46,070 nt of DNA, taken from contig CANQOJ010000001.1 in NCBI GenBank assembly GCA_947625455.1, positions 1 to 46,070 on the forward strand, read 5' to 3'. The notes under the pieces are model-generated. The model worked only from the letters and a program-made list of their open reading frames with translations. It was not told the origin of the DNA and did not search any database. The DNA comes from an uncultured Clostridia bacterium. GTDB lineage: Bacteria > Bacillota > Clostridia > Oscillospirales > Ruminococcaceae. Positions 3,047 to 27,112 of the stretch are shown here, piece by piece. Position numbers and translations under genes: made by a program. Position 1 is the first letter of the stretch; each line of letters starts with the position of its first letter.

Positions 3047-4219
3047 ATGAAATTTGCATTGATATTAAGTTTTGTTTATATTATAATATTCAATTTAATT
3101 ATCATATTCTCTTCAAGATTAAAGATAACTGAATTTCAGTCAAAAGCGATGTTTGCTTTATTTTCTATTGCTTTATCAGCAATAGCGCTCAACATTAAAG
3201 GTTCTATAGGACTGGATTTGGATGTTCATTTCATGCTGATGAACGATATTAGAAATGCAGACATATCGTTTTTTGACTTTATGTTTGTCAACACAAATTA
3301 TGTTGGTGGAATACAATACTCTCAGTTATTAACCTTTAATATGTTAAGATGGTTTGTGGTTACTTTTTTTGATGATAATATGGTTTTGCCATGGATATGC
3401 GTAATTATAGATTATACAATTATAGGATATATTTATACAGATTGGTATGCAACAACAATCGGAAAAAATAAATATAGTATCACTCCTTTGGTAGTTTCAT
3501 TTTCTTTTTTGCCATTTGTGAATTGTTGCTCCGGAATGAGAAATGGATTATGTGCTTGTCTGTTAGCTTTGGGAATATATCTTTATCTTTATAAAAAGAA
3601 GAGATTTTTAATTTTTGCTTTATTGGCATTCCTGGCAGCAACGGTTCATCCTGCTGCAATTATCACTATACCGTTTGTTCTGATTTCTAAAATCAACATT
3701 GGAATATGGGGTTATATAGGAGTTTTTGTGCTGTCCATTTCTGCCCAAAATGTTGCAAAATGGATGTCTCAGTCGGGAAACCTCTATTTGAGTATCATAG
3801 GAAGTAAATATTATACTTATACTTCAGAATCCCAATACCGCGCCTCACGCGCTCCTCTTTATACAGTATTAATTCTTATAATAATATTTCTTGTTATTTA
3901 TTTTGTTGTTCATTTCAAAAATAAATATGATTTTTCTGCCAATGGTCGTGACTTTATATATAGTTTTTTGGCGGTGTATATGGTTTACATACTTGGAAAT
4001 ATTGGAAATTATGATATGGTACTTCGCCCAGCATATGTACTTGGTCCACTATCTCCTGTGTTATGTTCTATGATATTAGATAAGACGCTTTGGATACAAA
4101 GCAAGCTAAACTCACGGGTGCAAAATGTTATTCGTATAATTTGCATTGCAGGTTGCTTTATTTGTGGCACATACTTGCAAATTAAACTTGCTTCAGTTCA
4201 GGCAAAATACTTTATATAA
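3047..4219 (+). CDS. EpsG-family polysaccharide polymerase (Wzy)
   Basis: Multi-TM 390 aa protein with EpsG-like motifs GMRNGLCACL and LAATVHPAA; locus context. Confidence 0.75.
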   Translation: MKFALILSFVYIIIFNLIIIFSSRLKITEFQSKAMFALFSIALSAIALNIKGSIGLDLDVHFMLMNDIRNADISFFDFMFVNTNYVGGIQYSQLLTFNMLRWFVVTFFDDNMVLPWICVIIDYTIIGYIYTDWYATTIGKNKYSITPLVVSFSFLPFVNCCSGMRNGLCACLLALGIYLYLYKKKRFLIFALLAFLAATVHPAAIITIPFVLISKINIGIWGYIGVFVLSISAQNVAKWMSQSGNLYLSIIGSKYYTYTSESQYRASRAPLYTVLILIIIFLVIYFVVHFKNKYDFSANGRDFIYSFLAVYMVYILGNIGNYDMVLRPAYVLGPLSPVLCSMILDKTLWIQSKLNSRVQNVIRIICIAGCFICGTYLQIKLASVQAKYFI

Positions 4220-4233: not shown

Positions 4234-4622
4234 ATAAAAACGAGTACATCAAGAAAACAATCAAATATTGAACTTCTTCGTGTCATTGCCATGCTCATGG
4301 TTACAATGCTGTATGCTCTCGGTCATGGCGGTGTACTTGAACAATATGATTTCGGTACATTTGGATATGTGTTTTTTGGTTTATCGAAACATTTTGCTAT
4401 GTTGCAGTAAACGTTTTTGTTTTGATAACCGGTTATTTTATGATTCAATCGGAATTTAAAATATCACGGGTGATAAAAACATTTTTTCAGGTAGAATTTT
4501 TTTCAATATTGTGTTTGATAGCGGCTAAATATATTTTTCATTCATCAATTGGTCTGAAAGAATTCGTATCTGAGATTTTCCGTAAAATATTTGTTAGATG
4601 GTGTAGACTTACAATTATTTAA
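4234..4622 (+). pseudogene. Acyltransferase-3 remnant
   Basis: Frame 1 reads RKQSNIELLRVIAMLMVTML...; a -1 shift at T6 (4372-4377) continues WFIETFCYVAVNVFVLITGYF. ATA stands where a start codon is expected after TAAGGT. Truncated at about 130 codons. Confidence 0.8.
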
Positions 4623-4758: not shown

Positions 4759-5604
4759 ATGAATGATTTGCAGAAAAAAATTTTTGAAATCTTTTTGGAA
4801 GTAAAGCGGATATGCGAAAAGCACAATCTTAGATACTGGGCAGTATCAGGAACTTGTCTTGGTGCTGTTCGCCATAAAGGATTTATCCCTTGGGATGATG
4901 ATTTGGATATAGCTATGCCAGATGATGATTATTTAAGCTTTTTAGAAATTGCCCCCAAGGAATTGAATTATCCTTTTCGGCTTATTACTGAGTGCGAAGC
5001 TAAACATTCTACTTGCTTATTTGCCAAAGTTCATAATATTGAAACTACTATGGTAGAGACTTTAGAAGTAAACTACACTGACACTTATAAAGGCATATTT
5101 ATTGACATATTTCCATTTAATGGTCTGCCAAAAAATAAATTTATAAGAACATTATATATATGGAAATTAATAACAATTGAAACCATGAACATTAAACAAA
5201 GATGGCCAATATACGCATCAAAGACTTTGAAGGGAAAGCTTTTGTATTTGGTTTTAAAGCCGATAAATACTCTGCTCCCTTATGGATATTGGGTGAATAT
5301 TTGGAAAAGAAATGCATTTAAATATAGTTTTGATAAATCTTGTTATTCTACATTTGCCAATGATAGAGAGGCGTTTAAATTAGTTTTTTCCCATGAATGT
5401 TTAAATGGCTTTGTAGAAGTGCCCTTTGAAAGTTCAACAATAAAGATACCGCAAGGATGGGATGAGATGTTACAAAAATTGTATGGGAACTATATGGAAT
5501 TACCACCTAAAGATGAAAGGCAGTCTCGTCATTCAGGCGGTATAGTGGATTTGGAAAGATCTTATAAGTCTTATTGTACTGAAAGCAAAAATAATACAGA
5601 TTAA
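4759..5604 (+). CDS. licD: LicD-family phosphotransferase
   Basis: GTCLGAVRHKGFIPWDDDLDI, GIFIDIFP and YGNYMELPP motifs; AAAGGTG RBS before ATG 4759. Confidence 0.92.
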   Translation: MNDLQKKIFEIFLEVKRICEKHNLRYWAVSGTCLGAVRHKGFIPWDDDLDIAMPDDDYLSFLEIAPKELNYPFRLITECEAKHSTCLFAKVHNIETTMVETLEVNYTDTYKGIFIDIFPFNGLPKNKFIRTLYIWKLITIETMNIKQRWPIYASKTLKGKLLYLVLKPINTLLPYGYWVNIWKRNAFKYSFDKSCYSTFANDREAFKLVFSHECLNGFVEVPFESSTIKIPQGWDEMLQKLYGNYMELPPKDERQSRHSGGIVDLERSYKSYCTESKNNTD

Positions 5605-5609
5605 ATTAA

Positions 5610-7076
5610 TTGATTATGATAATTTTGAAAAATTTTACAGAAAAATACAATAAACTTCCGCTTCATATCCGTGCCTCTGTATGGTATTTCATCTGTTCGT
5701 TTCTTCAAAAGGGCATTTCTGTATTATCTACCCCAATTTTTACACGTCTTTTGACAACGGAAGAATACGGTGAATACAATGTTTTCAATTCATGGTTAGG
5801 TATAGTTTCCATTTTCATTACTCTTAGACTTTATTACGGAGTATACGAACAGGGACTTATCAAATTTGAAGATGAGAGAGAGGCATTCACTTCATCGCTT
5901 CAAGGACTCACGCTTACCATGATTTCGGCGTGGACGGCAATATATTTAATTTTCAGAAGTTTTTGGAACAGTTTGTTATCGCTTACTACTGTTCAGATGT
6001 TGTCAATGCTTGTGATGACGTGGACGACGGCGGTTTATAATTTTTGGGCTACGGAACAAAGAGTCAAGCTGAACTATCAAAAGCTTGTTATTATTACCTG
6101 TTTGGTGACAATCTCCAAACCAGTAATAGGGATTATATTTGTTATAAATGCAGAAGATAAGGTGACTGCAAGGATCCTCGGCCTTGTGCTTGTTGAACTT
6201 ATAGCATATTCTTGGATGTTTGTGGCGCAGATGAAACGTGGCAAGAAGTTTTTCTCAGGAAAAATTTGGAAATATGTTATTGGATTTAACCTTCCTCTTG
6301 TTCCGCACTACCTTTCTCAAGTGATTCTTAGCAGTTCGGATAGAATAATGATAAGTAAAATGATCAGCGAAGATGTGGCAGGAATTTACAGTCTTGCCTA
6401 TTCCATCTCAATGATAATGGGCCTCTTTAATACGGCTTTGTCGCAGACATTAAGTCCATGGATACTGCAGAAAATAAAAGTCGGAAAAGTTAAGGAAACG
6501 GAGTCGATTGGATATATATCCTTGTCAATAATTGCAGGAGTAAATTTAGTTCTTATCGCATTTGCCCCAGAAGCTGTAGCACTTTTTGCGCCAATAGCTT
6601 ATCACGATGCAATATGGGTTATACCTCCTGTTGCTATGAGTGTATACTTTATGTATGCATATGATTTGTTTTCAAATATCGAGTTTTACTACGAAAAAAC
6701 AAAATTCATAATGGTTGCAAGCATGCTGGCTGCAATTTTAAATGTTATATTAAATTATGTTTTTATTGGAATGTTCAGCTATTATGCTGCAGGATATACA
6801 ACCTTGTTTTGTTATATGGTGTATGCGATTTCTCACTATTTGTTTATGAGGCATATAAGTAAAATACAGATGCATTGTGAGGCAGTTTATAAAGCCAAAA
6901 AACTTTTTTGCATTTCTGGTATTTTTTTGTTGCTCGGCTTTCTCTTCACATTTACTTATAATTTTATGATTTTGAGATATTTAATTTGTGCGTTTATTCT
7001 AGCCATATTGTTGATTAAACATAAAACTATAATTAGATTGATTGTAGAAGTAATATCTAAGAAAAAAGAAGTATAA
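5610..7076 (+). CDS. Polysaccharide flippase (Wzx)
   Basis: PIFTRLLTTEEYG, PLVPHYLS, SDRIMI and AGIYSLAY motifs; 12-14 TM segments. Confidence 0.9.
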   Translation: MIMIILKNFTEKYNKLPLHIRASVWYFICSFLQKGISVLSTPIFTRLLTTEEYGEYNVFNSWLGIVSIFITLRLYYGVYEQGLIKFEDEREAFTSSLQGLTLTMISAWTAIYLIFRSFWNSLLSLTTVQMLSMLVMTWTTAVYNFWATEQRVKLNYQKLVIITCLVTISKPVIGIIFVINAEDKVTARILGLVLVELIAYSWMFVAQMKRGKKFFSGKIWKYVIGFNLPLVPHYLSQVILSSSDRIMISKMISEDVAGIYSLAYSISMIMGLFNTALSQTLSPWILQKIKVGKVKETESIGYISLSIIAGVNLVLIAFAPEAVALFAPIAYHDAIWVIPPVAMSVYFMYAYDLFSNIEFYYEKTKFIMVASMLAAILNVILNYVFIGMFSYYAAGYTTLFCYMVYAISHYLFMRHISKIQMHCEAVYKAKKLFCISGIFLLLGFLFTFTYNFMILRYLICAFILAILLIKHKTIIRLIVEVISKKKEV

Positions 7077-7352
7077 ATTTTATATTTCGCTGTGATGATT
7101 TATGTATATAATCTTATTTGTTGCTAGCTCTATTAAGGGAACAAAATAAAAATTTTGTTATATAGTTATTATGTAATATGGTTTATATTTTATTTTGGTT
7201 ATTATGCCATAGTGAATGACAATGGAGATTCGCTCCCTTATGTATGGATTTTTTCACATTAACGATTTTAAGTAAAAGCAGTTTATATTGTTAATTTTTT
7301 TGGTTAGTTGAAAGCATATTAAAATAATAAAAATATTATAAGGAGAAGTAAA

Positions 7353-8411
7353 ATGTTTTATGTTAATGAATTGGTAAAAAACACTATTCGTGTACCTCAG
7401 CCCGAGGGTCGAGGCGCATACATCCGTTTGGATCAAAATGAGAATCCCGACGGGCTGCCAAAATGGTTGTTTGATTCCGTTATGGAAAAAGTAACGCCTG
7501 AATTTCTGGCTATTTATCCCGAAGAAACTGTTCCAACCGAAAAGTATGCAAAGATGCTCGGACTTAAAAAGGAAAACGTCACATTAACCGATGGCAGCAC
7601 CGTGGGAATGGGATATGTTATTAAAATCTTCGGACAGTCGGGCAAAGACATTCTATGTGTAACTCCATCTTTTGCAATGTATGAGGTATATGCTGAGATG
7701 ATAGGCATGAAGGTCAAAAATCTTAAGTATGAAAACGATTTTTCCTACAGAATAGAAAATACTCTGAATGCCATAAACGAAGATACAGGCATTGTTGTTC
7801 TTGTCAATCCCAATATGCCGGTGGGCAATGTTTACAGCAAAGAAGATATAATCAGTATCATTAACAAAGCAAAACAGCATAATGCTATTGTTATCATTGA
7901 TGAAGCGTACTATTATTTCTACGACAAGACCTCTATTGATTTGATAAAGGAATATGACAATGTATTTGTGCTCAGAACATTTTCAAAAATGTTGTCAATT
8001 CCATCTCTTAGGTTGGGAGTTATAATGTCATCTGAGGAAAATATAAAGTACATAAATAATTACAAGCCTCATTATACCGTTAATTCAATTGCGCTGCTTT
8101 TTGCGGAAGCAATTGTTGACAATCACGACAAATTACTTGCTGAATTGAATGAACAGTATCTTGAGGGCAAGGATTATATCACTAAAGCCCTTAACGACAA
8201 CGAATATGAAACAATTCCGTCTGAAGGCTGTTATGTATGCATAAAGCCTAAACATAAGACTTCAAGAGAAATTACAGATTTACTTAAAGAGAACGGCATT
8301 CTGATACTTTGCGGGAAAGGCGGACTTACAGGCTGGTTGAGGCTTACTATTGCACATAAGAAATACATGGAATTATTTATAAATACTTTGCTTAAAATTG
8401 ATAAGGAATAA
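7353..8411 (+). CDS. HisC/CobD-like class I/II PLP enzyme (aminotransferase or decarboxylase)
   Basis: IRLDQNENP, VNPNMPVG, IIDEAYY and RTFSK(PLP Lys)...LRLG motifs; TAAGGAG RBS; no his genes nearby. Confidence 0.85.
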   Translation: MFYVNELVKNTIRVPQPEGRGAYIRLDQNENPDGLPKWLFDSVMEKVTPEFLAIYPEETVPTEKYAKMLGLKKENVTLTDGSTVGMGYVIKIFGQSGKDILCVTPSFAMYEVYAEMIGMKVKNLKYENDFSYRIENTLNAINEDTGIVVLVNPNMPVGNVYSKEDIISIINKAKQHNAIVIIDEAYYYFYDKTSIDLIKEYDNVFVLRTFSKMLSIPSLRLGVIMSSEENIKYINNYKPHYTVNSIALLFAEAIVDNHDKLLAELNEQYLEGKDYITKALNDNEYETIPSEGCYVCIKPKHKTSREITDLLKENGILILCGKGGLTGWLRLTIAHKKYMELFINTLLKIDKE

Positions 8412-8422
8412 TCAAACAGGCT

Positions 8423-9136
8423 ATGCAAAATTACGTTATATTATTAGCAGGCGGCGTAGGAAAAAGAATGGGTTCTGTTATACCAAAGCAGTTTATTGAG
8501 GTCAATGGGAAACCCATAATTGCATATTCTATCGAAAACTTTCAGCGCAATCCGCAGATTGATAAAATTGTTGTAGTATGTGTGAAGAACTGGACAGATA
8601 AGCTTAAAGAAATTGTTACGAAATATTCTCTTTCCAAAGTTGAATGGATAATCGAAGGTGGAAATACCGGTCACGACTCTATCAGAAATGGCGTGTTTTT
8701 CCTTAAGGACAAGCTTAAACCTGACGATTATATCATCGTTCACGATGCCGTCAGACCGATTTTGCCGCAAAAGGCTATTGATGAGGTAATTCGGGTCGCA
8801 CATGAAAAAGGCAATGCTTCATCGTCAATTGCCTGCCACCCGCCTATCGTTTATACTGACAATTTTAAATCAGGTATAAAGGATATTGACAGGGAACACA
8901 TAATGCTCACTGCTTCACCGCAGGCATTTCAATATTCTCTTGCGCTAAAATGCTATGAGAAAGCAGAGCAGGAAAACAAGCACGATTTTACTTTTACAAG
9001 TTCACTGCTTATTCATTGCAAAGAAAGAGTGTATTTTGCCAAAGGTACAACGTGTAATATCAAAATCACAACAAAAGCGGATATAGCTTTGTTTGAAGCA
9101 TTGCTTCAAGTGCCGGAAGAATTACTATATGACTAA
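8423..9136 (+). CDS. IspD/TarI-family polyol-phosphate cytidylyltransferase
   Basis: LLAGGVGKRMG..PKQF, HDAVRP and NIKITT motifs. Confidence 0.9.
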   Translation: MQNYVILLAGGVGKRMGSVIPKQFIEVNGKPIIAYSIENFQRNPQIDKIVVVCVKNWTDKLKEIVTKYSLSKVEWIIEGGNTGHDSIRNGVFFLKDKLKPDDYIIVHDAVRPILPQKAIDEVIRVAHEKGNASSSIACHPPIVYTDNFKSGIKDIDREHIMLTASPQAFQYSLALKCYEKAEQENKHDFTFTSSLLIHCKERVYFAKGTTCNIKITTKADIALFEALLQVPEELLYD

Positions 9137-9160
9137 AAATCCAACGCAAAAGGAATCTCA

Positions 9161-10778
9161 TTGATGAATTGTTCAGAGTATTTAGTTGATTTTCTAATAA
9201 ATCACGGTGTTACCGATGTATTCGGCTATGCAGGCGGATATATTGTTCCGTTTATGGACGCTCTTTATCTGCGCAATGATGAAATAAAGACACACGTCTG
9301 CTATAACGAGCAGGGCTGCGCTCTTGCGGCTGACGGATATGCAAGGACAAGCGGTAAAATAGGAGTTTATTTTACAACCTCAGGTCCCGGTGCTGTAAAC
9401 GGGCTTGGCGGTCTTGCAGACGCTTGGTTTGACGGATTTCCTGTTATGGGTATTTGCGGAAATGTTCCTACAAATGAAATGAAGGGGTTTTCGGGAATCA
9501 GGCAAAATGGTTTTCAAGAGATGGATATTGTTTCCATGACAAGAAACATCACAAAATATTCTGTAACAGCGAACAGCAGCGAGGGCTTTCAGGACGTTGT
9601 AAGCCGTGCGTATAACATGGCATTGCTTGGAAGAAAGGGAGGTGTGATAATTGATTTTCCGCTCGACATACAGCAAGCCGATATTGCTTGCGGGTAACGG
9701 CGTGAGAAGCGCCGGAGATGAAGCGGTAAATATGCTTCACGAGTTTGCAAGAAAAACAAATATCCCTGTCCTAACGACAATGAACGGTGTTGACCTCGCT
9801 CAGGACGATTTACATATAGGCTTTATAGGAACACATGGAAACCGCATTGCAAATATGATTTTAAACGAGTGTGATTTTGTTGTGTCAATCGGCGCGCGTC
9901 TCGGAATTCGTCAGGTAGGCAGAACCGCAAAAAAGTTCGCACCCAAAGCGGATCTGGTGCGGTGCGATATTGACGAATACGAACTCAGCCGTGATATAAA
10001 ACCGAACGAGAAAAAATATCACACGGACGCGCGCGACTTTTTGAGAAAGATTTTAAACGAAGATGTCGGAGATTATTCCGCTTGGCGAAATCAATGCCTT
10101 GAAGCAAAAAAGATTTTGTCAGAACATGACTTACAGCCCGGAAACAGGGCAATTGAGAAGATAGCATCTTTTCTTCCCGAAAGCCCAATTGTAGCAGTAG
10201 ATGTAGGTATGAATCAGTGCTGGTGTGCGCAGTCTTTAGTACTGAAAGGCAATAACGGTCGTATTCATCTCAGCGGCGGATACGGAACAATGGGCTGCGG
10301 TTTGCCTTACGCGATAGGTTCCTGCATAGCTGCAGATAAAAAGCCCGTTTATTGTATTACAGGCGACGGTGGATTTCAGATGAACATTCAGGAACTTGAA
10401 ACAGTAAAGCGCGAAAATCTGCCAATTAAGATATTTATTCTTAATAACCGAGTACTTGGGAAGATAAGTGAAACCCAACATTTCGACCTTTGCGACCGCT
10501 TTGCTAATACGGCAATATCCGGCGGATATACCGTTCCTAATTTTTGCGCAATATCCGAAGCATACGGAATTCGCGCAGCAAAGCTTGGTTCGTATGATGA
10601 ACTTAATAACTTCAAGGAGTGGTTTACGGACAACAGTCCCTGTCTCTTTGATATATCGCTTCCGGAAAACAGTTTTCTTACTCCGAAGATTGAGTTTGAA
10701 AGTCAGAGCATCAGACCGGAGATTGATGAAAAAATTATAAGTTATGTAAAAAAAATTTTAAGACAGAATTCAAAGTGA
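9161..10778 (+). pseudogene. Acetolactate-synthase-like ThDP-dependent enzyme, split into ORFs 9161-9697 and 9651-10778
   Basis: N-terminal PYR domain (NEQGC, TTSGPG, GFQEMDI) and a central/PP domain with GDGGFQMNIQEL...NN. The frame switches at about 9672-9690 and the inter-domain linker is missing. Confidence 0.85.
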
Positions 10779-12990: not shown

Positions 12991-13587
12991 TCAGTCAGTC
13001 CAGATTCCTCCCCACTTCTGATCCTTATCACTGACAACAAGTTTCGTGCCATCTATAAGCGAATAATTTGCTACGCTTGCTGTACCGTCATATTCTCCGA
13101 CAACACCCCACTTAATACCTATTTGAGGATCATTCCATGCAATCCCGCCCTCATCATTCGGGTGATAAAAATCATCGCATTTGTAACAAAATTCAGCTGT
13201 ATCACTGAGAACAAGAAATCCGTGCGCAAAGCCTTTGGGGATGAAAAATTGCTTCTTGTTTTCCTCGCTTAACTCCATACCGAACCATTTTCCAAATGTT
13301 TCAGAGCTTTTGCGGATATCAACTGCCACGTCAAAAACCGTTCCTTTTATCACTCGCACAAGTTTTGTCTGCGGATAGTTTATTTGAAAATGAAGCCCGC
13401 GGAGAACGCCCTTGACAGAACAAGATTGGTTGTCCTGAACGAAATTGCAGTTTAATCCCGCCTCTTCCATATCCTGCTGTGAGTAAGTTTCCATAAAATA
13501 TCCGCGGTTGTCGCCGTGAACATCGGGAGTAATAATACATAATCCCTTTATTCCACCGACATTTTTTTCAACTTTGATTTGTCCCAT
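12991..13587 (-). CDS. rmlC: dTDP-4-dehydrorhamnose 3,5-epimerase
   Basis: DNRGYFMETY, VQDNQS, GVLRGLHFQ and GFAHGF motifs. Confidence 0.96.
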   Translation of the reverse strand: MGQIKVEKNVGGIKGLCIITPDVHGDNRGYFMETYSQQDMEEAGLNCNFVQDNQSCSVKGVLRGLHFQINYPQTKLVRVIKGTVFDVAVDIRKSSETFGKWFGMELSEENKKQFFIPKGFAHGFLVLSDTAEFCYKCDDFYHPNDEGGIAWNDPQIGIKWGVVGEYDGTASVANYSLIDGTKLVVSDKDQKWGGIWTD

Positions 13588-14482
13588 TTTCCTGAATCTC
13601 CTTCAAATATCTTGCAAGCGCATCTTTCCAGTCTGGTAGCGGCTGAAATCCATTTGCAATTAATTTCGATTTGTCAAGCCTTGAATTAAATGGTCGTTTT
13701 GCCTTAGAAACGCCATATTCTTTTGTAAAAACCGGAATCACTTTTGTATCTTTTCTGGCTTGCATAAATATTTCAACAGCAAAATCATACCAAGAAATAT
13801 AGCCACCTTCATTGGTTGCATGGTAAAATCCGTATTTTTCAGTTTCTGCCATATCCACTAATAAACGTGCTAAATCATATGTATATGTCGGTGTGCCAAT
13901 CTGGTCATTTACCACACGGATTTCTGGATATTTTTTCGATAATTTCAGCATAGTTCTGATGAAATTATTTCCATTCTTGCCGAACACCCATGCGATTCTG
14001 ACAATGAAATATTTATCAAGTATATTTGCAACCGCAAGTTCACCGTCAAGCTTTGATTGACCATACACATTAAGTGGTGCAAAATTTTTGTCATCGGCTT
14101 GCCATGGTTCTGAACCTTGCCCATTGAATACATAATCCGTAGAAATATATATCATTTTGCAACCAATTTTCTTGCAGATTTCTGCAATATTTCTTGTGCC
14201 GTTTACGTTGATATTCCGTATCTTTTCAAAGTTATCCGAATCTTCAGCAGCATCAACGGCAGTCCATGCTGCGCAATGAATGACAACATCCGGAGCATCT
14301 TTTTCAATTGCAGAAAATACCGCATTTTTATCCGTGATATCTAATTTTATATATTCACAATCTACAGAACATTCATCAGAAATATCACTGCCGATAACGG
14401 AATATTTTCTTGAAATGATCTCATTGACAACATCATAGCCAAGCTGTCCGCAGATGCCTGTTACAAAAAAATTCACATTCAA
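13568..14482 (-). CDS. rmlD: dTDP-4-dehydrorhamnose reductase
   Basis: GQLG, HCAAWTAVD, ISTDYVF, YGQSK and DQIGTPT motifs. Confidence 0.96.
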   Translation of the reverse strand: MNVNFFVTGICGQLGYDVVNEIISRKYSVIGSDISDECSVDCEYIKLDITDKNAVFSAIEKDAPDVVIHCAAWTAVDAAEDSDNFEKIRNINVNGTRNIAEICKKIGCKMIYISTDYVFNGQGSEPWQADDKNFAPLNVYGQSKLDGELAVANILDKYFIVRIAWVFGKNGNNFIRTMLKLSKKYPEIRVVNDQIGTPTYTYDLARLLVDMAETEKYGFYHATNEGGYISWYDFAVEIFMQARKDTKVIPVFTKEYGVSKAKRPFNSRLDKSKLIANGFQPLPDWKDALARYLKEIQENGTNQS

Positions 14483-15507
14483 ACCTCCGCACGATTACCG
14501 TACATTTTTTCATAGTAATTCTGATATTCGCCAGAGATGATTTCCTCCCACCACTCCTTATTGTCGAGATACCATTTTATTGTCTTTTTGATGCCGTCTG
14601 CAAATTTTGTTTCCGGTAGCCACCCAAGTTCATTATGAATTTTTGTCGGGTCGATCGCATAACGCATATCGTGACCTTTTCTGTCCTCAACATGAACAAT
14701 TAAATTTTCCGGCTTTCCTAATTCCTTGCAGATCAATTTCACGATGTCAATATTTTGCATTTCATTGTGACCGCCGACATTGTAAACCTCACCGATTCTG
14801 CCTTTGTGAATGATTAGGTCTATTGCACGGCAATGATCCTCAACATACAGCCAGTCACGGACATTTTTTCCTTCACCGTAAATAGGCAGCGGCTTGTCAT
14901 TCAGTGCATTAGCAATCATCAGCGGGATTAACTTTTCAGGGAAGTGATACGGTCCATAATTGTTGGAACACCTTGAAATTGTCACCGGCAAACCATATGT
15001 CCTATGATAAGCAAGCACCAATAAATCTGCACCAGCTTTAGAACTGGAATAGGGGGAACTTGTATGAATTGGTGTTTTCTCTGTAAAGAACAGATCTGGG
15101 CGGTCAAGCGGCAGATCGCCATAGACCTCATCGGTCGATACCTGATGATACCGCTGAATGCCATATTTCCGGCAAGCATCTATTAAAGTTGCCGTTCCGA
15201 TAATATTCGTTTGTAGGAAAATTTCCGGATTTTCAATACTGCGGTCAACATGGGACTCCGCTGCGAAATTCACAACAATGTCCGGATGCTCCTCTTCAAA
15301 TAATTTGTAAACCCCCTCACGGTCACAGATATCCAACTTGACAAAACGTAAATTAGAATTTTCCATGACAGGTGCAAGTGTAGACAAATTGCCTGCGTAA
15401 GTGAGCTTGTCTAAACAAATAATACGGTAATCCGGATATGTATTCAGCATATGAAAAATAAAATTTGAACCAATAAATCCAGCACCGCCAGTTACGATAA
15501 TTGTCAT
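14479..15507 (-). CDS. rmlB: dTDP-glucose 4,6-dehydratase
   Basis: TGGAGFIG, AAESHVDRS, STDEVYG and YSSSK motifs. Confidence 0.97.
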   Translation of the reverse strand: MTIIVTGGAGFIGSNFIFHMLNTYPDYRIICLDKLTYAGNLSTLAPVMENSNLRFVKLDICDREGVYKLFEEEHPDIVVNFAAESHVDRSIENPEIFLQTNIIGTATLIDACRKYGIQRYHQVSTDEVYGDLPLDRPDLFFTEKTPIHTSSPYSSSKAGADLLVLAYHRTYGLPVTISRCSNNYGPYHFPEKLIPLMIANALNDKPLPIYGEGKNVRDWLYVEDHCRAIDLIIHKGRIGEVYNVGGHNEMQNIDIVKLICKELGKPENLIVHVEDRKGHDMRYAIDPTKIHNELGWLPETKFADGIKKTIKWYLDNKEWWEEIISGEYQNYYEKMYGNRAEV

Positions 15508-15518
15508 AATTTTTCTCC

Positions 15519-16406
15519 TTAATACTTGATTTTTCCTTCCGCAACCTGTTTTAAATGCGAGCCATATGACGATTTACCATATTTTTTAGCAGACTTCATC
15601 AGTCCAGCATTATCGATCCAGCCATTAATAAAAGCAATTTCCTCTGGAGCAGAAATTTCAATGCCTTGCCGATTCTGCAACATCTGTACAAAATTTGTAG
15701 CTTCTGCAAGGCTGTCCATTGTACCGGTATCCAACCATGCAAAGCCACGCCCTAAAAGTTGAACATCAAGCGATTTTTCGCATAAATACATTTCATTTAA
15801 TGTAGTGATCTCCAATTCACCACGAGCAGAGGGTTTGACCTGATTCGCTTTTACAGAAACTCCTGCCGGATAAAAATACAGGCCTGTCACAGCGTAATTA
15901 CTTTTCGGATTTTCCGGCTTTTCCTCAATAGAAAGCACATGACCGTCCTGATTAAAATCAACAACGCCGAAACGCTCCGGATCTGGAACATAATACCCGA
16001 AAACAGTGGCACGATGATTTTTTTCTGCATTCTTTTTTGCATTGCGAAGAATTGTTCCGAAGCCATTACCATAGAAAATATTATCACCGAGCACCATAGC
16101 ACAAGCATCACCGCCGATAAATTCCTCGCCGAGAATAAATGCCTGTGCAAGCCCATCAGGGCTGGGCTGAATTTTGTAGCTCAGGTTAATTCCGTACTGT
16201 GATCCATCACCAAGCAATTTCTCAAAATTCGGTAAATCTGTAGGTGTCGAAATAATGAGAATATCCCTAATTCCAGCAAGCATAAGCGTTGATAGAGGAT
16301 AATACACCATTGGTTTATCATAAACCGGAAGCAATTGTTTTGATGTGACCATTGTTAATGGATACAGCCTTGTGCCGGAGCCTCCGGCGAGAATGATGCC
16401 TTTCAT
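15519..16406 (-). CDS. rmlA: Glucose-1-phosphate thymidylyltransferase
   Basis: [26 protein letters not shown] and SARGELEIT motifs. Confidence 0.97.
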
Positions 16407-16418
16407 GATACTCCTCCC

Positions 16419-16850
16419 TTACTTTTTTATTTTTTTCTTCAGATCCGTTGTTGATATACCCTGTGTATAAGGGAGGTACTCGATCTTGACACCGAGAGGT
16501 TTAAATTGTTCCTCGGTTCTTATGTAGCGTTCAGAGCCCTTCCAATCGTCACCGGAAAACAGCACATCAAAATGGAATCGTTCATATGCCAGCACCTTGT
16601 CATCTATTGTTGCAATATCCACCAATTCTGCACGGTCAACGCACTTGAGCGCATTGATGATTCGAACACGATCATTCTCATTGATTATGGGTTTCTTCAT
16701 TTTGATATTGCACACATATGTATCATCACATACGCCAACAATCAGGACATCACACATTTTCTTGCATCTTTCAAGAAGATTCAGATGTCCGACATGGAAT
16801 AAATCAAAGACACCGCAGGTATAACCTACCTTATATTTTTTTTCGTTCAT
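16419..16850 (-). CDS. tagD: Glycerol-3-phosphate cytidylyltransferase-like (TagD/Gct)
   Basis: GVFDLFHVGH (HxGH), GDDWKG and YTQGISTT motifs; GAGGTG RBS before ATG 16850. Confidence 0.85.
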   Translation of the reverse strand: MNEKKYKVGYTCGVFDLFHVGHLNLLERCKKMCDVLIVGVCDDTYVCNIKMKKPIINENDRVRIINALKCVDRAELVDIATIDDKVLAYERFHFDVLFSGDDWKGSERYIRTEEQFKPLGVKIEYLPYTQGISTTDLKKKIKK

Positions 16851-16878
16851 CAAAAACACCTCTTTCGACATATTTAAT

Positions 16879-17700
16879 TTACTTTTTATAAGCAGAATAG
16901 TCATGATGGGGAACACGCTTATCTTTCGAAGGGAGTTGCATATAATCACCGTACGCCATCCGCAGAATTGAATCGTAGTTTTTAGGAATCCACACCTCCG
17001 TATCTTCAAAAGGAACACGAATCACCTCTTCAAAATCCTTTTTCCTAAAAATATCCCTGATCCAGCAGGGCGTACCGATATACTCACTCTCCTCCCAAGT
17101 AAAGCACTTATGTTGATTAAATTTGTTGATAAAGTACTGCTTTCCAACAAGACGCGAGAATAACATATAAGGCAAATTCAGGACTTTCTTAAGGGTTGTT
17201 TTTCCAAACCACAGATTCTTAGTACAATTCATGAACACGCCTCGCTGTAACATGGGGTATTTCTTGAAGCGCTTTTTCCAGTAATCCAGGTCACTTTCTT
17301 TTCCCATTCCCTCCAGTGGGTACACATCAACGAATGTCCCAGAGGTATATTTAAAGCCATCAAACTCCAGATGATATGTATTATCCACTACTCTTGAAAT
17401 ATTATAGAAGCAATCCTTGTTCGTCTTCTGGTTATGAATCTCCAAAGGCGAAAGTTTTGCTTGATTTTTGATAAAGTAATCTACAAATTTCTCGTAGTCA
17501 CATTTCCTCATCCCGATGTCAATATCATCATCCCAGGGAATATACCCCTTATGCCGGATCGTTCCAATCAGCGTGCCAAACATAATGTAATACTGAATAT
17601 CAAGTTCCCCACAGATTTGGTCAATTCGTTTAAGTAGCTCCAGTGTCACCAGCTGGGTGTCTCTGAATGACAGCTTTTCATAATTACCGTCCATATTCAC
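16879..17700 (-). CDS. licD: LicD-family phosphotransferase
   Basis: GTLIGTIRHKGYIPWDDDIDI and YGDYMQLP motifs. Confidence 0.92.
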   Translation of the reverse strand: MNMDGNYEKLSFRDTQLVTLELLKRIDQICGELDIQYYIMFGTLIGTIRHKGYIPWDDDIDIGMRKCDYEKFVDYFIKNQAKLSPLEIHNQKTNKDCFYNISRVVDNTYHLEFDGFKYTSGTFVDVYPLEGMGKESDLDYWKKRFKKYPMLQRGVFMNCTKNLWFGKTTLKKVLNLPYMLFSRLVGKQYFINKFNQHKCFTWEESEYIGTPCWIRDIFRKKDFEEVIRVPFEDTEVWIPKNYDSILRMAYGDYMQLPSKDKRVPHHDYSAYKK

Positions 17701-19128
17701 TCATTCTCCTTTTCTCAATTTTTTAATGAAACCAATATTTTTTTCCTCCACAATGACCAGAACACAGAACAGAACCAGCGCAATTGCCCAGCGAAGCAAC
17801 CATTGGTCAATCAGTATCATAATCGAAAAATTACCCAGGATCACAACTACAGAGACAGTCACTACAGTCTTGAGGGAAATGTGGAATTCCGGCATAATCT
17901 TCTTTGCAGTAAGGATATGAAATAAAAAATACAACACATAGGTTACCAAAGTTGTATAGGCAGCCGAAACATAACCGTAGGCGTTGATGAAAAAGGCGTT
18001 CAACGAGATATTGATGACAGCTGCTACCACTGTGCTAAGCGCCATATATCCAGTTTTTTCTGTATAATACTCAACTGTTGCAGGAATCGTATACAGAAAC
18101 GAAAAGTAGCCAGCGGTGATTATGGGCAGTACGATATACTTTGCATCCGCATATTTTTCACCACCCAGAATCGTAATCAGTTCCGGACTGACCATCATCA
18201 CCAGCAATGAGAAGACAAGCATTCCTAGCATATAGTAGGTGGAATACCTTTTCACAGAATCATAATCCTTGGCATTCAGCCTGCTGTACACCCATGTGCT
18301 CCACACATTATCCAGAGAACTGTACGTCACACTGATGATCATAAAGATATTATAGGCGAAACTATAAATACCAGCAGCAGATGAACCGATCATATTCTTA
18401 ATCATGATTCTGTCGAACTGTCCCAGAATTACCTGGCTTATTCCGTGAAAGATGATTGGACTGCTGTAAACTAATCCCCATTTCAGATATTCCTTGAAAT
18501 TTCGGGGTTTTTCCTTCGTCAGATACCTTGTAGCAATCACAATAGAGAGGATCAGAGAAGGAACAACTGTTCCAATTATTCTGCCCATATATCTATTTTG
18601 GTTCAACGCCGTAACGATCAGCAAAATGGACAGAATAGTGTTCCCCACAGCATTGATACCTGATATCCACAGATAGCTGTCATACTTATAGCTCAAGCTT
18701 GCATCCGCATTGAAACAGGTGATGACAGCCGTAGAATAGCTGAACAGCACCAGCAGATTCATGCTCAGTCGATCAATCCCCAAGTATCCGGAAGCCACTG
18801 AATAGATGAGATTCGCAATCAAAAGCCATACCCCAGCACTGATCATCAGTAGCACCATGGTGACTGAAATATACTGTGAATAGGACAATTCCTCCCGCGA
18901 ATTATCACTGTCATACCGATACTTCGCACTTTTAAAGCTACTATGAATTGCAAACCCAAGGATAATAAACAGGATTGTCTCATAGGAAAGAAAAACACTG
19001 TAATCACCGAAATCCTCTGTGGATAAGAGGCGTGAGTAAATGGGAAGTGTCAAAAATGCCAAACCCTTGAACAGATAATTTCCTATTGTATAGCCGATTC
19101 CGGCTTTGATTGCTTTTGAAGAACTCAT
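17701..19128 (-). CDS. Polysaccharide flippase (Wzx)
   Basis: PIYSRLLSTEDFG, FDRIMI and AGIYSFAY motifs; multi-TM. Confidence 0.9.
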   Translation of the reverse strand: MSSSKAIKAGIGYTIGNYLFKGLAFLTLPIYSRLLSTEDFGDYSVFLSYETILFIILGFAIHSSFKSAKYRYDSDNSREELSYSQYISVTMVLLMISAGVWLLIANLIYSVASGYLGIDRLSMNLLVLFSYSTAVITCFNADASLSYKYDSYLWISGINAVGNTILSILLIVTALNQNRYMGRIIGTVVPSLILSIVIATRYLTKEKPRNFKEYLKWGLVYSSPIIFHGISQVILGQFDRIMIKNMIGSSAAGIYSFAYNIFMIISVTYSSLDNVWSTWVYSRLNAKDYDSVKRYSTYYMLGMLVFSLLVMMVSPELITILGGEKYADAKYIVLPIITAGYFSFLYTIPATVEYYTEKTGYMALSTVVAAVINISLNAFFINAYGYVSAAYTTLVTYVLYFLFHILTAKKIMPEFHISLKTVVTVSVVVILGNFSIMILIDQWLLRWAIALVLFCVLVIVEEKNIGFIKKLRKGE

Positions 19129-19155
19129 AAAACTGTAGTGTCACCTCTCAACAGC

Positions 19156-19688
19156 TCAACATTTTCTTTTATAAATTGGTTTGGCTGGACTTCCTCCAAC
19201 TGTTGTATTACAGGGGACATCATGACTAACGAAAGAGTTAGCACCAATATTACAATTATCGCCCAAAATGATATCACCAACTACTACACTATTTGTGAAA
19301 ACTGTTACATGATTTCTAACTGTAGGCACACCACTTTCGCCATTCACACCTAGTGTCACTCCTTGATATACTGTAAACATTTCACCAATTTCTTTACAAT
19401 TTAAATATATACCCCCCCATGTACAATTTTAAGACCCTTACCAACTTGAATATTAGTGTTTAGATGAATACCATATTTAAATTCATAATGTCTGAAAACC
19501 AGATAAACAGGAAATCCAAATAGTATCTTTATTATGTTGTGCTGCTTTACATAGCACATGATTCGAAACCAAAATACGTATCTAAACATATTCCCTCTTG
19601 GAAAAAAATATTGAATTAGTAAGCCTTTCAACGTGGGATCACACAGTCTAGCTAAATCCTCTTTGAGTATTGTAAATAAATTGTTCAT
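19156..19688 (-). pseudogene. CysE/LbH-type O-acetyltransferase, frameshifted at a G7 tract (possible phase-OFF allele)
   Basis: ORFs 19401-19688 and 19156-19380 join as ...IVHGGGIYLNCKEIGEMFTVYQGVTLG... if the tract at 19412-19418 is G8; ends with IGANSFVSHDVP...GGSPAK. Confidence 0.88.
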
Positions 19689-19782
19689 ACAGTGCTCACC
19701 CTTCTTCAATTCAAAAATTTTATACTAGGCATATTGTTGCGGATGCCTCTCTGCTTTAATATATTAAGCGAAAATCAATATA

Positions 19783-20970
19783 TCATTGCTTCCTTTTTAT
19801 ACATATATATTGCTTTATTAATATTATATAGCACAGAATAAAAGTTAAAGATGTTTCAGTATACCAAAAAGTATTTTGAAAGAAATTAATAATCCACATA
19901 AGATTTAAAAATGATAAACAAACAACTCTATCGGTATTTTCTTTTCTTTTTCGATTTAAAGCAATAAATAGCAATGAGTTTACAACAAAATAAGCAAAGA
20001 ACAAATACATTCCTATAATACCACCATAAATATACGAATCGCAATAACCTGTTGAAACTGTAAAATAATCCTTCACCAACATAGCATTCATATTATTTTT
20101 ATATCCATATACAAATCTATTTGTAAGACTCTCCGGTAAAAATTGTGCAAGAAAATACCTAATATTAAAATTAGTATTATGATTGACTATATTATAATTT
20201 AAATTTGATAAGGGAGATATTGCATAAGAATATAGCCACTTATACTGTCCAGGAATAAAACTGGGATATTTTCTATATCTTCCAAGTAAATCTATAAATG
20301 AATTATCATTCCATCTATATCCTTCTCGAATGTTTCCAATAACGCCAAATAAATACGCAGCACTCAAAAACGCAACTATTGCTATAATGATATTCTTGCG
20401 ATTAAATAGTTTTCGTTGCTCTAAAAGCATCTGTAAAACAATAAGAGATATCGCTATCATTACAAGCATCATTTGGCTTCTTGAGAATTTCAAAATAATA
20501 TTAGAGAAAATAATTATAAATCCCGCAAGATATCTTTTATTTATAGTAATACAAAATAAATAAAAGTATTTTACTGAATAAAAAAGCGCAAGAATAACCA
20601 TAACAACGGAAACGTGAGGTATAGATTGAATCTCATTGCCATAGGTAAATTGACCTGTTAAATATCCAAGAAAAGGTATGGTACCCGCATATAGAAAATT
20701 CATAAAATATAACACTGTCACTATATATGCAGGCAATAGTGAAATTTTTTCTTTTTGCTGCAATAAACGATCCCTTATAATTTTATTTTGTGTTTTAATT
20801 TTAAAATCTCCTCTAAATGTATATCCAAGAAACCAAGATATACATGATGTTATAACAATAAAAATGAGCAAATGAATAGATAATGGCATGGAAAAGTCGC
20901 TAAGTTTCAATGAATATAGAAACAGAATAACTCCCCACAATATTGAATACCAATAAAAACAATTAAGCAT
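19783..20970 (-). CDS. Putative polysaccharide polymerase (Wzy)
   Basis: Very AT-rich multi-TM 395 aa protein with GNIR and WLYSYAISPLSNL loop features; locus context. Confidence 0.75.
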   Translation of the reverse strand: MLNCFYWYSILWGVILFLYSLKLSDFSMPLSIHLLIFIVITSCISWFLGYTFRGDFKIKTQNKIIRDRLLQQKEKISLLPAYIVTVLYFMNFLYAGTIPFLGYLTGQFTYGNEIQSIPHVSVVMVILALFYSVKYFYLFCITINKRYLAGFIIIFSNIILKFSRSQMMLVMIAISLIVLQMLLEQRKLFNRKNIIIAIVAFLSAAYLFGVIGNIREGYRWNDNSFIDLLGRYRKYPSFIPGQYKWLYSYAISPLSNLNYNIVNHNTNFNIRYFLAQFLPESLTNRFVYGYKNNMNAMLVKDYFTVSTGYCDSYIYGGIIGMYLFFAYFVVNSLLFIALNRKRKENTDRVVCLSFLNLMWIINFFQNTFWYTETSLTFILCYIILIKQYICIKRKQ

Positions 20971-20986
20971 TTATTCACACCATATC

Positions 20987-21901
20987 TTATGTATTTTTAA
21001 AATCAAATTTTGTAATTCCAAGCACCAATAAAGCACGCATTGTTGCAATCGGATTATCAAGTTTATAGCCATGAAGCATTGCATAAATTCCTCTGTATAA
21101 CCTTGTTTTTTCCATAATACGATTATATTTTTGAGCAATACAGTTATTTTCAGATATCGTTTTACAATACATATAATTTTGTATGATGGCTTTCTTAATA
21201 TTATTGTTCGTTTTCTTCCAATTTTTTATTTTTGCTTTGAGTGAAAAATTATTAACGCCGCCCGTCACATTACCGTCGTGCTGCCGATAATAGATGCTTT
21301 CATACCGGATGTGCACGACGACTCCTTTGGAGGATGCAACAAGTGCCGACCAATAGTCGTGGCACACGACATATTCTGGAAAAGGAATTATCAATTCTTT
21401 CAACTGCCAGTTCAGCATTGCCGTGCAACCGTAGACTGGGTTTTGGCAAAGAATTGAAAACAAGTCATGCTTCAAATCCTTGTCTGGAATTCCCATTGGC
21501 TTTAGATTCTGATTTACAAAGGTTTTATCTGTATAAACCAAAACCGGGACATTAGGGTTATTTTGTTCTGTATTCAACATTGTGATCAATGTCTTTTCAA
21601 TCTTATTCTTCTTCCAAACATCATCCTGATCGCTGAACATGACGTAATGCTTTCCTGTTTCCTCTTTCAGAAGCTCTTCAAAATTTCTGACCTGTCCTAC
21701 ATTGGAAAAACCCTGGATTAGTTTGATACGGCTATCCTTTCTCATGTATTCCTGAATGATTACTATTGTCTGATCCTTGGATTGATCGTCCCGAATGATT
21801 AGCTCCCAATTTTGATAAGTCTGTGCCAGAATGCTATCGAGCTGTTCTGCAATGAAACGCTCACCGTTATAAGTTCCCATCAAAATGATCACCTTATACA
21901 T
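20987..21901 (-). CDS. Glycosyltransferase family 2 (rhamnosyltransferase-like)
   Basis: MGTYNGERFIAEQLDSIL, RDDQS, FSDQDDVW, HDYW and YRQHDGN motifs; start set at ATG 21901 after GAAAGG. Confidence 0.9.
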   Translation of the reverse strand: MYKVIILMGTYNGERFIAEQLDSILAQTYQNWELIIRDDQSKDQTIVIIQEYMRKDSRIKLIQGFSNVGQVRNFEELLKEETGKHYVMFSDQDDVWKKNKIEKTLITMLNTEQNNPNVPVLVYTDKTFVNQNLKPMGIPDKDLKHDLFSILCQNPVYGCTAMLNWQLKELIIPFPEYVVCHDYWSALVASSKGVVVHIRYESIYYRQHDGNVTGGVNNFSLKAKIKNWKKTNNNIKKAIIQNYMYCKTISENNCIAQKYNRIMEKTRLYRGIYAMLHGYKLDNPIATMRALLVLGITKFDFKNT

Positions 21902-21920
21902 AAAAAAGTCCCTTTCTATT

Positions 21921-23024: not shown

Positions 23025-23026
23025 CC

Positions 23027-23608
23027 TTACACCACTCTAACCCACTTCTTTTCTATACAAGACCAACACTTGATTGGCTTTGCTGGGGAGCCAACAGCAA
23101 TTGTGTTTTCCGGGATATCCCTCGTCACCACACTATTGGCACCAATAATGCACCCAGCTCCAATGGTAACACCGCTTAGTATTACAACATTCTCACCAAT
23201 CCATACTCGATCACCGATACTGACTGGCGCTGTCACAAGCTTTCTCTGATTTGGAATTGTGTCTGGTGCACTAGGTTCATCCGCCCCATAGTTACCATGA
23301 CTTGTATCACTGATGAAACATTTGGAAGCAATCAAGACGTGATTTCCAATCGTGACTTTCTCATGAGCAACAATATGTGTCATATCTCCCATTTCACAAT
23401 TCTCACCAATAAACAACGTTTTCTTACATTTCTCAAGATCAAAGCGACAAAATCTTCCTGTTGTCAACCCCTTTCCTCCACTTAGGGAAGATCGTCCGCG
23501 TAGGTAGATGGGTCTACGCACGAGTCTTGCCTGGCGAAAAAACAGTTTTGTTATAACAAGAGAATACGTTGTTTTAATAAATTCAGATAGAGAATATATA
23601 TTATTCAT
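23027..23608 (-). CDS. Hexapeptide-repeat O-acetyltransferase (WbbJ-like)
   Basis: LTTGRFCR, ISDTSHG and VWIGENVVILSGVTIG..IGANSVVTRDIP motifs. Confidence 0.88.
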   Translation of the reverse strand: MNNIYSLSEFIKTTYSLVITKLFFRQARLVRRPIYLRGRSSLSGGKGLTTGRFCRFDLEKCKKTLFIGENCEMGDMTHIVAHEKVTIGNHVLIASKCFISDTSHGNYGADEPSAPDTIPNQRKLVTAPVSIGDRVWIGENVVILSGVTIGAGCIIGANSVVTRDIPENTIAVGSPAKPIKCWSCIEKKWVRVV

Positions 23609-26085: not shown

Positions 26086-26109
26086 GCAAAACTCTCCTTT
26101 ATCTCAATT

Positions 26110-26626: not shown

Positions 26627-27112
26627 CTTCTCCAATCCAACCAATACTATTGATCTGCTCATCCACTCCCATAACAAGAATGACTTTATCATTTCTTACA
26701 GATATGGAATCCACAAGCCGATTTTTATTAAAACATCTCCCAAAAATTCTTGACTGTCTGCATATTCAATCTCCTTATCGCTGAAAACTCATACAATCGG
26801 TGTTTTTATATTTTCAACAAAGGAATCTAATTTATAAAATTAGATTTCGCCCATTAACAGCAGATGTAAAACTACAGTATTACAGAAAAGTGCAGTCTGC
26901 TGTCGTGCTACAGATCTTATTTTTGAATGGTACTATATTATTCATTTTATCACTCATACATTAGACTCTATTCGTATATTTATAATCGAGCCGATATATT
27001 TGACTGTGGAATACTATTTTAAGTTCTTATATTAAAACCAGTAATATCAAATGTCATGCCGATACTTAACAAGAGCATTACACGCTCATCAGACAACAGC
27101 CACGCACGATAA

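Follow-up and report, generated by a model that had tools for sequence, protein, structure and literature searches.

The left end of contig CANQOJ010000001.1 (assembly GCA_947625455.1, from an uncultured Clostridia bacterium of the Ruminococcaceae), of which a 46,070-nucleotide stretch was analyzed (the window), carries a four-gene cassette that is a real, conserved, and apparently undescribed variant of the cytidine diphosphate (CDP)-polyol pathways. The sequence shows a conserved module in which a thiamine diphosphate (ThDP) enzyme of two chains and an IspD-like cytidylyltransferase are joined by an enzyme that converts a carbonyl and is either pyridoxal phosphate (PLP)-dependent or a short-chain dehydrogenase/reductase (SDR); in most cases, a LicD or TagF-type transferase lies next to the module. 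We consider it probable that this mobile cassette produces an amino-polyol phosphate, activated with CDP, that is then transferred onto surface polysaccharide. No description of the pathway, its product, or the split enzyme was found in the open-access literature, a scope that leaves out subscription carbohydrate-structure papers. Below, G000 denotes the genome of the window, and C-, L-, P-, and X-numbers denote its contigs, the loci compared, homologous proteins, and contigs from sequencing runs, respectively.

All four genes lie on the + strand. A HisC-fold PLP enzyme (7353..8411; PF00155), the predicted transaminase of a (CDP-)ketol phosphate, precedes an IspD/TarI-like cytidylyltransferase (8423..9136; PF01128). 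These are followed by the ThDP N-chain (9164..9697; PF02776), with 177 amino acids (aa), an ATG start, and a PYR domain with catalytic Glu49, and by the C-chain (9651..10778; PF00205 and PF02775), with 375 aa, a TTG start in the +1 frame, and the middle and PP domains. A Shine-Dalgarno (SD)-like GGAGGT (9638..9643, +) stands within the N-chain coding sequence, 7 nt ahead of the C-chain TTG. The preliminary description of this DNA reported three tightly spaced genes ending a Wzy locus with LicD; the spacing and context hold, but there are four open reading frames (ORFs), as the supposed single ThDP gene is two that overlap.

G000 (2.3 Mb, 93% complete) has its own hisC, ispD-ispF, dxs, and two ilvB genes as separate copies above the profile cut-offs, and the separate housekeeping hisC, ispD, and ilvB copies imply that the three window enzymes are extra, specialized ones. 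The PLP enzyme scores 225.6 bits against TIGR01141, under the cut-off of 276.55, and it is not the only hisC of the genome, as a separate HisC on C97 scores 284, above that cut-off. The IspD-like protein is TarI-like by a marginal score against NF001183 (166.8; cut-off, 166) and falls short of IspD in TIGR00453 (156 bits; cut-off, 181.3), a profile that the housekeeping ispD-ispF on C208 passes; its top matches in the PDB are TarI structures (E values of 1e-30 to 1e-36). The ThDP halves score 155 and 212 bits against TIGR00118, where the cut-off for IlvB is 538. The cassette lies outside HisC, IspD, IlvB, and TarI/TarJ membership, in the last case for want of a cognate reductase beside the TarI-like gene.

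In the PLP enzyme, K212, D183, Y186, N152, R220, Y55, and R330 are invariant among 35 sequences, and a fold type I PLP site is present. Its model (predicted local distance difference test [pLDDT] score, 92.5) has HisC and CobD as best fold matches, at 19 to 25% identity. In HisC, an Arg of the C-terminal 'vR' strand binds the substrate phosphate. The HisC of G000 itself has this Arg, as does 3HDO; it is absent from the 12 IspD-linked sequences shown, a loss that would fit a different phosphate position in the IspD-linked clades. A query of the ESM Atlas via the homologue P0057 returned generic aminotransferase clusters only.

The split of the ThDP enzyme is natural and not the result of damage. 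It is seen in 103 of 103 classifiable loci, with fusion in none, and two further loci are cut or unclear. In 82 loci, a count that takes in the window and one duplicate (L176 = L041), the overlap is of the window type, with a TTG start, the +1 frame, and an SD-like sequence in K-G-G codons. In 21 loci, the N-chain has its own stop and the C-chain a separate ATG, in relative frames 0, 1, and 2. The C-chain N terminus M-I-F...K-P (M-I-L in one case) is common to both arrangements. Since separate ATG starts occur in all three frames, frameshifting is excluded, and the invariant junction reflects dual coding. Both halves are under strong purifying selection. The proportion of nonsynonymous differences (pN) is 0.03 to 0.14 for the N-chain and 0.06 to 0.30 for the C-chain, versus synonymous proportions (pS) of 0.64 to 0.90 and 0.64 to 0.94 (16 pairwise comparisons), and the ratio of the corresponding rates (dN/dS) is 0.01 to 0.05 where computable, with synonymous sites near saturation.

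A stand-alone 177-aa N-chain protein is deposited for Clostridium symbiosum, Faecalicatena contorta, and Faecalibacillus intestinalis. About 30 linker residues present in full-length relatives are absent from the window pair, and a search of longer proteins (141 matches among 581 candidates) gave no unsplit relative more than 51% identical, although such an absence is weak. The junction is spanned without difference by contig X4 (9580-10057) of the sample that best holds the window, which may be the window's source and so is not independent. In at least two parts of the C-chain tree, two separate genes have taken the place of the overlap (L113, L118, L128, and 18 more). One group of these separate-gene loci has strong SD sequences, and the other has AT-rich, SD-less leaders, which we take to be Bacteroidota-like. 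The proteins P0121 and P0122, fusions of the N-chain with GT2 or LicD, and the loci L117 and L168, with unrelated neighbors, look like chimeric assemblies or deletions.

Phylogenetically, the split enzymes are monophyletic (support, 1.00) and lie outside the ilvB clade (FastTree, 184 rows). The ThDP motifs are intact, with the catalytic Glu in the N-chain and GDG...NN in the C-chain. Two true ilvB copies lie elsewhere in G000, and no regulatory subunit lies beside the split enzyme. In place of LGMVRQW, the split enzyme has LGKISE with a conserved Lys, which could, at a guess, bind phosphate. The best PDB match of the C-chain is 5AHK (E value, 1.6e-44), followed by 8RPH, and for the N-chain, the fungal acetolactate synthase (ALS) 6DEK ranks marginally above 5AHK. 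We take 5AHK to be PpYerE and 8RPH to be JanthE. Genes of a CDP-3,6-dideoxy-4-keto-hexose pathway were found neither in the window nor among the recurring neighbor families of the cassette, with singleton neighbors partly annotated.

To see what accompanies the ThDP genes, the best 80 of 278 confirmed metagenome loci were surveyed. A reductase or aminotransferase lies directly 5' in 77 of them. The upstream genes are an extended SDR with the same IspD in 29 loci, the PLP enzyme with IspD in 17 (one PLP gene being partial), a short SDR in 28, of which 24 have a short IspD-like gene, an NTP-transferase/HisC-like fusion in three, and IspD only in three. The pair of short SDR and short IspD presumably resembles Bcs1. 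No retrieved locus has the PLP enzyme and the extended SDR together, and the IspD-like gene of the window is 73 to 83% identical to that of loci carrying the SDR in the place of the PLP enzyme. The suggestion that the PLP enzyme takes the part of a reductase is thus borne out by the 29 of 80 loci in which an SDR fills its slot. It was also correctly noted that no reductase adjoins the IspD-like gene at the window locus; the best match to the extended SDR in all of G000 is 26%.

The extended SDR also bears on the order of the steps. Its best PDB matches are 8V4G and 8V4H (E value, 5e-39), the HS5.17 enzyme of Campylobacter jejuni, whose partner, in the part of the source cited here, activates fructose-6-phosphate, not glucitol-6-phosphate, with reduction coming after (PMC10918830). 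CDP-D-xylulose is named as the precursor of pneumococcal CDP-arabinitol in the cited part of a preprint (bioRxiv 10.64898/2026.05.22.727167). One cytidylyltransferase is paired with a reductase in some loci and an aminotransferase in others, which is most simply explained by a ketol phosphate as its substrate and the CDP-ketol as that of the PLP enzyme. The kinship with HS5.17 is the strongest piece of evidence. The preliminary description placed amination before activation by cytidine triphosphate (CTP); the reverse is more likely, as the swapped-in SDR is closest to an enzyme acting on CDP-fructose. Given the overall logic, activation before amination appears fairly probable.

A second survey, from the PLP side, covered 79 loci (the best of 82), with PLP enzymes at least 72% identical in 24, 54 to 68% in 34, 32 to 45% in 20, and one partial. 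Co-occurrence of the genes elsewhere, posed as a check on the cassette, is evident: the order PLP-IspD-N-C recurs in 22 of the 24 genome loci at 72% or more. Of the two exceptions, one is cut by a contig end; in the other, L009, IspD is truncated and the ThDP genes are missing. LicD (12 loci) or a TagF-type gene (9 loci) is found in 20 of the 22. Nine Saccharofermentans/Oscillospiraceae-type loci have the cassette and two LicDs without Wzy-locus genes, mostly among housekeeping genes. The 34 loci at 54 to 68% (Fibrobacter, Treponema, Methanomassiliicoccales, and some Firmicutes) all have the IspD-like gene and none has the ThDP enzyme, with LicD or a TagF-type gene in 29. Ribose-5-phosphate isomerase (Rpi) is present in 24 of these 34 (RpiB in 18 and the nonhomologous RpiA in 6), versus 1 of 102 ThDP loci. 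In the PLP tree, the ThDP-linked clade (24 rows; support, 99) is nested within an IspD-linked clade (58 rows; support, 100), so that the ThDP enzyme seems to have taken over from Rpi at a later stage as carbonyl supplier. The Rpi distribution points to a substrate resembling a 2-keto-pentose-5-phosphate, with the supplier likely exchanged.

The 34 loci without ThDP genes (L031-L067, L087), which combine PLP and IspD with RpiB (Fibrobacter, Treponema) or RpiA (Methanomassiliicoccales), represent a simpler predicted CDP-amino-pentitol pathway, and a link to the aminopentanetetrol head groups of archaeal lipids is possible. L087, from Treponema bryantii, is one of the loci with RpiB. Among the 20 loci at 32 to 45%, 15 (L062-L082) pair a HisC-like enzyme with a fusion of a TagD-like cytidylyltransferase and a Gfo/Idh/MocA oxidoreductase, and LicD is often present; they are a candidate route from CDP-glycerol by oxidation and transamination to CDP-serinol. 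L058 (a Bifidobacteriaceae record) and L064 (a Ruminococcus record) fall among Methanomassiliicoccales by their position in the PLP tree and by gene content; they are likely misbinned contigs. Apparent PLP-IspD fusions in archaeal loci were rejected as an artifact of ORF calling.

From these observations, a pathway can be proposed whose overall logic we regard as likely. The two ThDP chains would together form a YerE-like carboligase, which joins an acetyl group derived from pyruvate to an aldose phosphate, most likely glyceraldehyde 3-phosphate (G3P), yielding a 1-deoxy-pentulose 5-phosphate. As the host Dxs already makes DXP (1-deoxy-D-xylulose 5-phosphate), plain DXP from the ThDP enzyme would be redundant; dxs is present in G000 and in four bacterial hosts checked. 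The product is probably not the D-xylulo compound, 1-deoxy-ribulose-5-phosphate being a guess, and YerE-like enzymes are described as mostly (R)-selective in the cited part of PMC12247030. The IspD-like enzyme would use CTP to form a CDP-ketol, which the PLP enzyme would transaminate at C2 to CDP-2-amino-1,2-dideoxy-pentitol; in SDR loci, the result would be CDP-1-deoxy-pentitol. LicD, or a TagF-type enzyme elsewhere, would then transfer the amino-polyol phosphate and create a zwitterionic phosphodiester. The exact C5 product can be named only tentatively, its chances lying clearly below even. In anisomycin biosynthesis, a ThDP enzyme couples a keto acid with G3P, and transamination leads to an aminopentitol, according to the cited part of PMC9092360. 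The substrates suggested earlier by analogy to Cj1437 and Cj1436, dihydroxyacetone phosphate (DHAP) and serine phosphate, are a poor fit with IspD-type activation and with Rpi partners. A wider generalization, which we hold to be conceivable at a little under even chances, is that amino-polyol phosphates decorate the surface glycans of a family of gut and rumen bacteria and methanogens, the CDP donors arising by transamination of a CDP-ketose. In one branch, the two-chain YerE-like carboligase would build the 1-deoxy skeleton of CDP-2-amino-1,2-dideoxy-pentitol, and exchange of aminotransferase and reductase would switch the group between zwitterionic and anionic.

Parts of this plan are known from other systems. 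As in C. jejuni HS5.18/HS5.17 (CDP-6-D-glucitol), Streptococcus pneumoniae Mnp1/Mnp2 (CDP-mannitol), and the route from CDP-xylulose to CDP-arabinitol, a PF01128 enzyme would activate a ketose phosphate whose carbonyl is converted later, which for the cassette is suggested by the SDR partner of the same IspD clade. Unlike these systems, the cassette has a PLP enzyme in the reductase slot and a dedicated ThDP enzyme that appears to build the ketose phosphate. TarI/TarJ and Haemophilus influenzae Bcs1 (CDP-ribitol) are akin to it in that TarI is the best PDB match of the IspD-like protein and the same LicD/TagF-type families flank the cassette, which, however, has no TarJ-type Zn-dehydrogenase; the TarI/TarJ-type pair of G000, which is 29% identical, lies together with another LicD on C103. 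YerE/YerF (yersiniose A), ErwE, and JanthE, the closest solved ThDP relatives, also belong to a surface-glycan context and are followed by a reductase or transaminase. The cassette enzyme differs from them in its two chains, its conserved LGKISE Lys, and the lack of CDP-3,6-dideoxy-4-keto-sugar genes. We take C. jejuni Cj1437 and Cj1436 to be HisC-like. By description, they too are PLP enzymes for amino-alcohol phosphates in a capsule locus (DHAP to serinol phosphate and serine phosphate to ethanolamine phosphate, respectively), but the part of the source cited here has their products attached as amides by an ATP-dependent ligase, with no CDP activation (PMC11800397). Anisomycin AniP/AniQ and DAB-1 (GabT1-type) share the coupling of a keto acid with G3P, the transamination to an aminopentitol, and a proposed amination of xylulose-5-phosphate; in the cited part of that account, unlike in the cassette, these are natural products made with a transketolase-type enzyme, with neither CDP activation nor glycan transfer (PMC9092360). 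The 'aminoalditol' of PMC10671486 was rejected as a precedent, being an analytical derivative in the cited part.

The window retains a trace of how the cassette arrived. At 7137..7259 (+) lies a remnant of an EpsG-type wzy, its last 41 codons, which is 64 to 71% identical to wzy ends in nine loci; there, the wzy is just upstream of the PLP gene (TagF-type loci L013, L015, L021, L093, L097, L099, L106, L115, and L122). The junction of wzx and remnant is bridged by the same-sample contigs X1 (6852-7270) and X3 (6797-7302). This scar implies arrival by recombination from a TagF-type locus. Among the nine, L013 belongs to C. symbiosum ATCC 14940. A DNA search found no cassette copy in 40 relatives, the split C-chain occurs in two genomes besides G000 among 399 scored class-level genomes, and plasmid and phage collections gave distant matches only. 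In run X1, positions 7142 and 7299 have loose ends, as would be seen if no more than this stretch were shared with another contig, and a donor-like locus may exist in the same gut community.

Upstream of the cassette, the window encodes a LicD-family phosphotransferase (4759..5604, +; PF04991, E value of 1.5e-40), a candidate acceptor-side enzyme and one of three LicDs in G000, of which the other two adjoin their own CDP-alcohol genes. The claim that the cassette feeds LicD holds for the family, with LicD or a TagF-type gene beside it. For the window LicD, there is adjacency only, against at most 36% identity and the TagF-type scar, and we put use of the cassette product by this LicD at slightly better than an even chance.

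Several observations weigh against the proposed pathway or its operation in this host. Every chemical step assigned to the cassette is a prediction from sequence. The loci of the two surveys are not independent, as they include near-duplicates and related hosts. More than one PLP/SDR swap is not shown, as a single origin of the SDR-linked IspDs is not rejected by the approximately unbiased test (p-AU, 0.288; 52 rows, with L176, L157, L117, and near-identical rows left out). The Firmicute PLP+IspD loci L031, L036, and L066 have neither Rpi nor the ThDP enzyme, and Rpi loss is therefore only moderate evidence. At L173 (9000-14300; G374), a divergent split ThDP enzyme (78%/57%) has as neighbors a class II pyruvate aldolase, a KdsC-like phosphatase, and a CMP-ulosonate synthetase, which may together form an unusual ulosonic acid pathway. 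The window LicD is at most 36% identical to those of the retrieved loci (identities of 40 to 50% belong to the other two LicDs of G000), and no close relative of it was found at an E value of 1e-55 in 401 Lachnospiraceae genomes. No TagF-type gene was found in G000, at its 93% completeness, so that a cassette of TagF-type origin may be an orphan here. In that case, it would work elsewhere and be mispaired in G000, its cognate TagF-type transferase left behind, with the window LicD using CDP-choline, CDP-glycerol, or CDP-ribitol. The wzy scar, the unrelated LicD, the other CDP-alcohols that the genome makes (TagD in the window; TarI and Zn-dehydrogenase on C103), and the decay of the cassette in L009, its nearest relative, all speak for this explanation. 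It is countered by four intact genes with no excess of amino acid change, by the donor genes beside each of the other two LicDs, which leave the window LicD next to the cassette, and by the use of LicD in 12 of 22 close loci; moreover, the contig end cuts off what lies upstream in the window locus. We think it unlikely, although it deserves to be taken seriously.

The role of the ThDP enzyme could also differ from that of the carboligase proposed above. The closest solved relatives accept ketones, natively CDP-4-keto sugars, as far as the sources drawn on extend. If the split enzyme did likewise, the IspD-like enzyme would first activate a ketose phosphate (ribulose-5-phosphate [Ru5P], xylulose-5-phosphate [Xu5P], or DHAP), the ThDP enzyme would add acetyl to the ketone, and the PLP enzyme or SDR would produce a 1-aminoethyl or 1-hydroxyethyl branch, an outcome of the same class on another skeleton whose probability is counted within that of the cassette function given at the outset. 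The C-chain's best PDB matches (5AHK and 8RPH, taken to be PpYerE and JanthE) favor such branching, as does a full-length relative, L175, in a cluster resembling a CDP-dideoxysugar pathway. L017 holds the ThDP genes and keeps RpiB, and YerE acts on a CDP-4-keto sugar, with the branch undergoing reduction afterwards or, in other pathways, transamination, as stated in the cited part of PMC9306805. However, the same ThDP enzyme is found with three unrelated types of cytidylyltransferase, an arrangement more simply explained by its action on a free metabolite; Rpi occurs in 1 of 102 ThDP loci versus 24 of 34 others; and the PLP enzyme descends from a clade without carboligase, which together make branching rather unlikely. 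An accessory role seems improbable: as a plain ALS or decarboxylase, the enzyme would remove the keto-acid coproduct of the transaminase or supply an aldehyde, like phosphonopyruvate decarboxylase in aminoethylphosphonate (AEP) pathways; as a variant, it may be a decarboxylase making the aldose phosphate. ALS family profiles do match, and ThDP, PLP, and cytidylyltransferase genes together follow the known logic of AEP pathways (the cited part of PMC6697681). A coproduct sink would leave unexplained the 57 of 80 ThDP loci with a reductase and without this transaminase, and the position outside the ilvB clade, LGKISE for LGMVRQW, and the lack of an adjoining regulatory subunit also argue against it. 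Finally, the ThDP gene could be a pseudogene, a misassembled ALS, or a programmed frameshift, with PLP and IspD alone making CDP-amino-pentitol from ribulose-5-phosphate. The frame change, the roughly 30 missing residues, a TTT-C site in the invariant junction, and the PLP+IspD+Rpi loci that need no ThDP enzyme fit this idea. It is highly improbable in view of the split in every classifiable locus, the 21 loci with separate ATG starts in all three relative frames, the low dN/dS, the monophyly of the split clade, and the lack of an unsplit relative above 51%; the selection data and the separate starts led us to reject both the pseudogene and the programmed-frameshift readings.

If the proposed carboligase pathway is correct, gut commensals, C. 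symbiosum among them, would have in amino-polyol phosphate a zwitterionic surface group that is new, with possible consequences for phage binding, cationic peptides, and immune recognition. To our knowledge, the CDP-alcohol donors of LicD and TagF are only neutral polyols, choline, ethanolamine, or phosphonates. For C. symbiosum, nothing on a polysaccharide structure came up in the open-access literature search. The cassette is conserved in many gut and rumen microbes, and, thanks to the natural swap of reductase and aminotransferase, four or five soluble enzymes would suffice for a direct test of the pathway. A two-chain member of the ALS/YerE family, often annotated as fragments, would likewise offer a new scaffold for carboligation with phosphorylated acceptors.

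The runs best holding the window sequence are listed as rabbit gut metagenome, and none of the listed holders is an RNA data set. At its left end, the window has a polysaccharide locus of the Wzy-dependent kind, low in GC and made up of tightly spaced + strand genes, in the order cut serine hydroxymethyltransferase (SHMT)-like gene, acyltransferase, GT2, EpsG-type Wzy, LicD, Wzx, wzy remnant, and the cassette (PLP, IspD/TarI-like, N-chain, and C-chain); its upstream part is cut off by the contig end. The EpsG-family Wzy polymerase lies at 3047..4219 (+; PF14897, E value of 8.5e-14), and the Wzx flippase at 5610..7076 (+; PF01943) is 61% identical to the Wzx preceding the PLP gene in L009. Promoter and terminator counts are at chance level. 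The gene cut by the contig end (46-912, +) is an SHMT/threonine-transaldolase-like PLP gene inside the polysaccharide locus. It scores 117 bits against NF000586 and 94 bits against TIGR04506, both under the cut-off, is 26% identical to the genome's own SHMT, and has no homologue in the retrieved loci; its product may be a beta-hydroxy amino acid substituent. Between wzy and licD, a frameshifted remnant (4252-4568, +) resembles a gene of L069 and is read from the sequence as an acyltransferase. C103 (7,872 bp) is a polysaccharide piece with a DegT aminotransferase, an initiating transferase, LicD, TarI, a Zn-dehydrogenase, a ribulose-phosphate epimerase, and a cut GT2 at its end. What is missing upstream from the + locus could be this piece, but no overlap joining it or any other contig to the left end of the window was found. 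On the - strand, a second, converging Wzy locus (12991-26085) has its own initiating transferase, LicD with a TagD-like cytidylyltransferase, and rmlABDC, and broken gene remnants lie at about 19170-19420 and 26100-27650.

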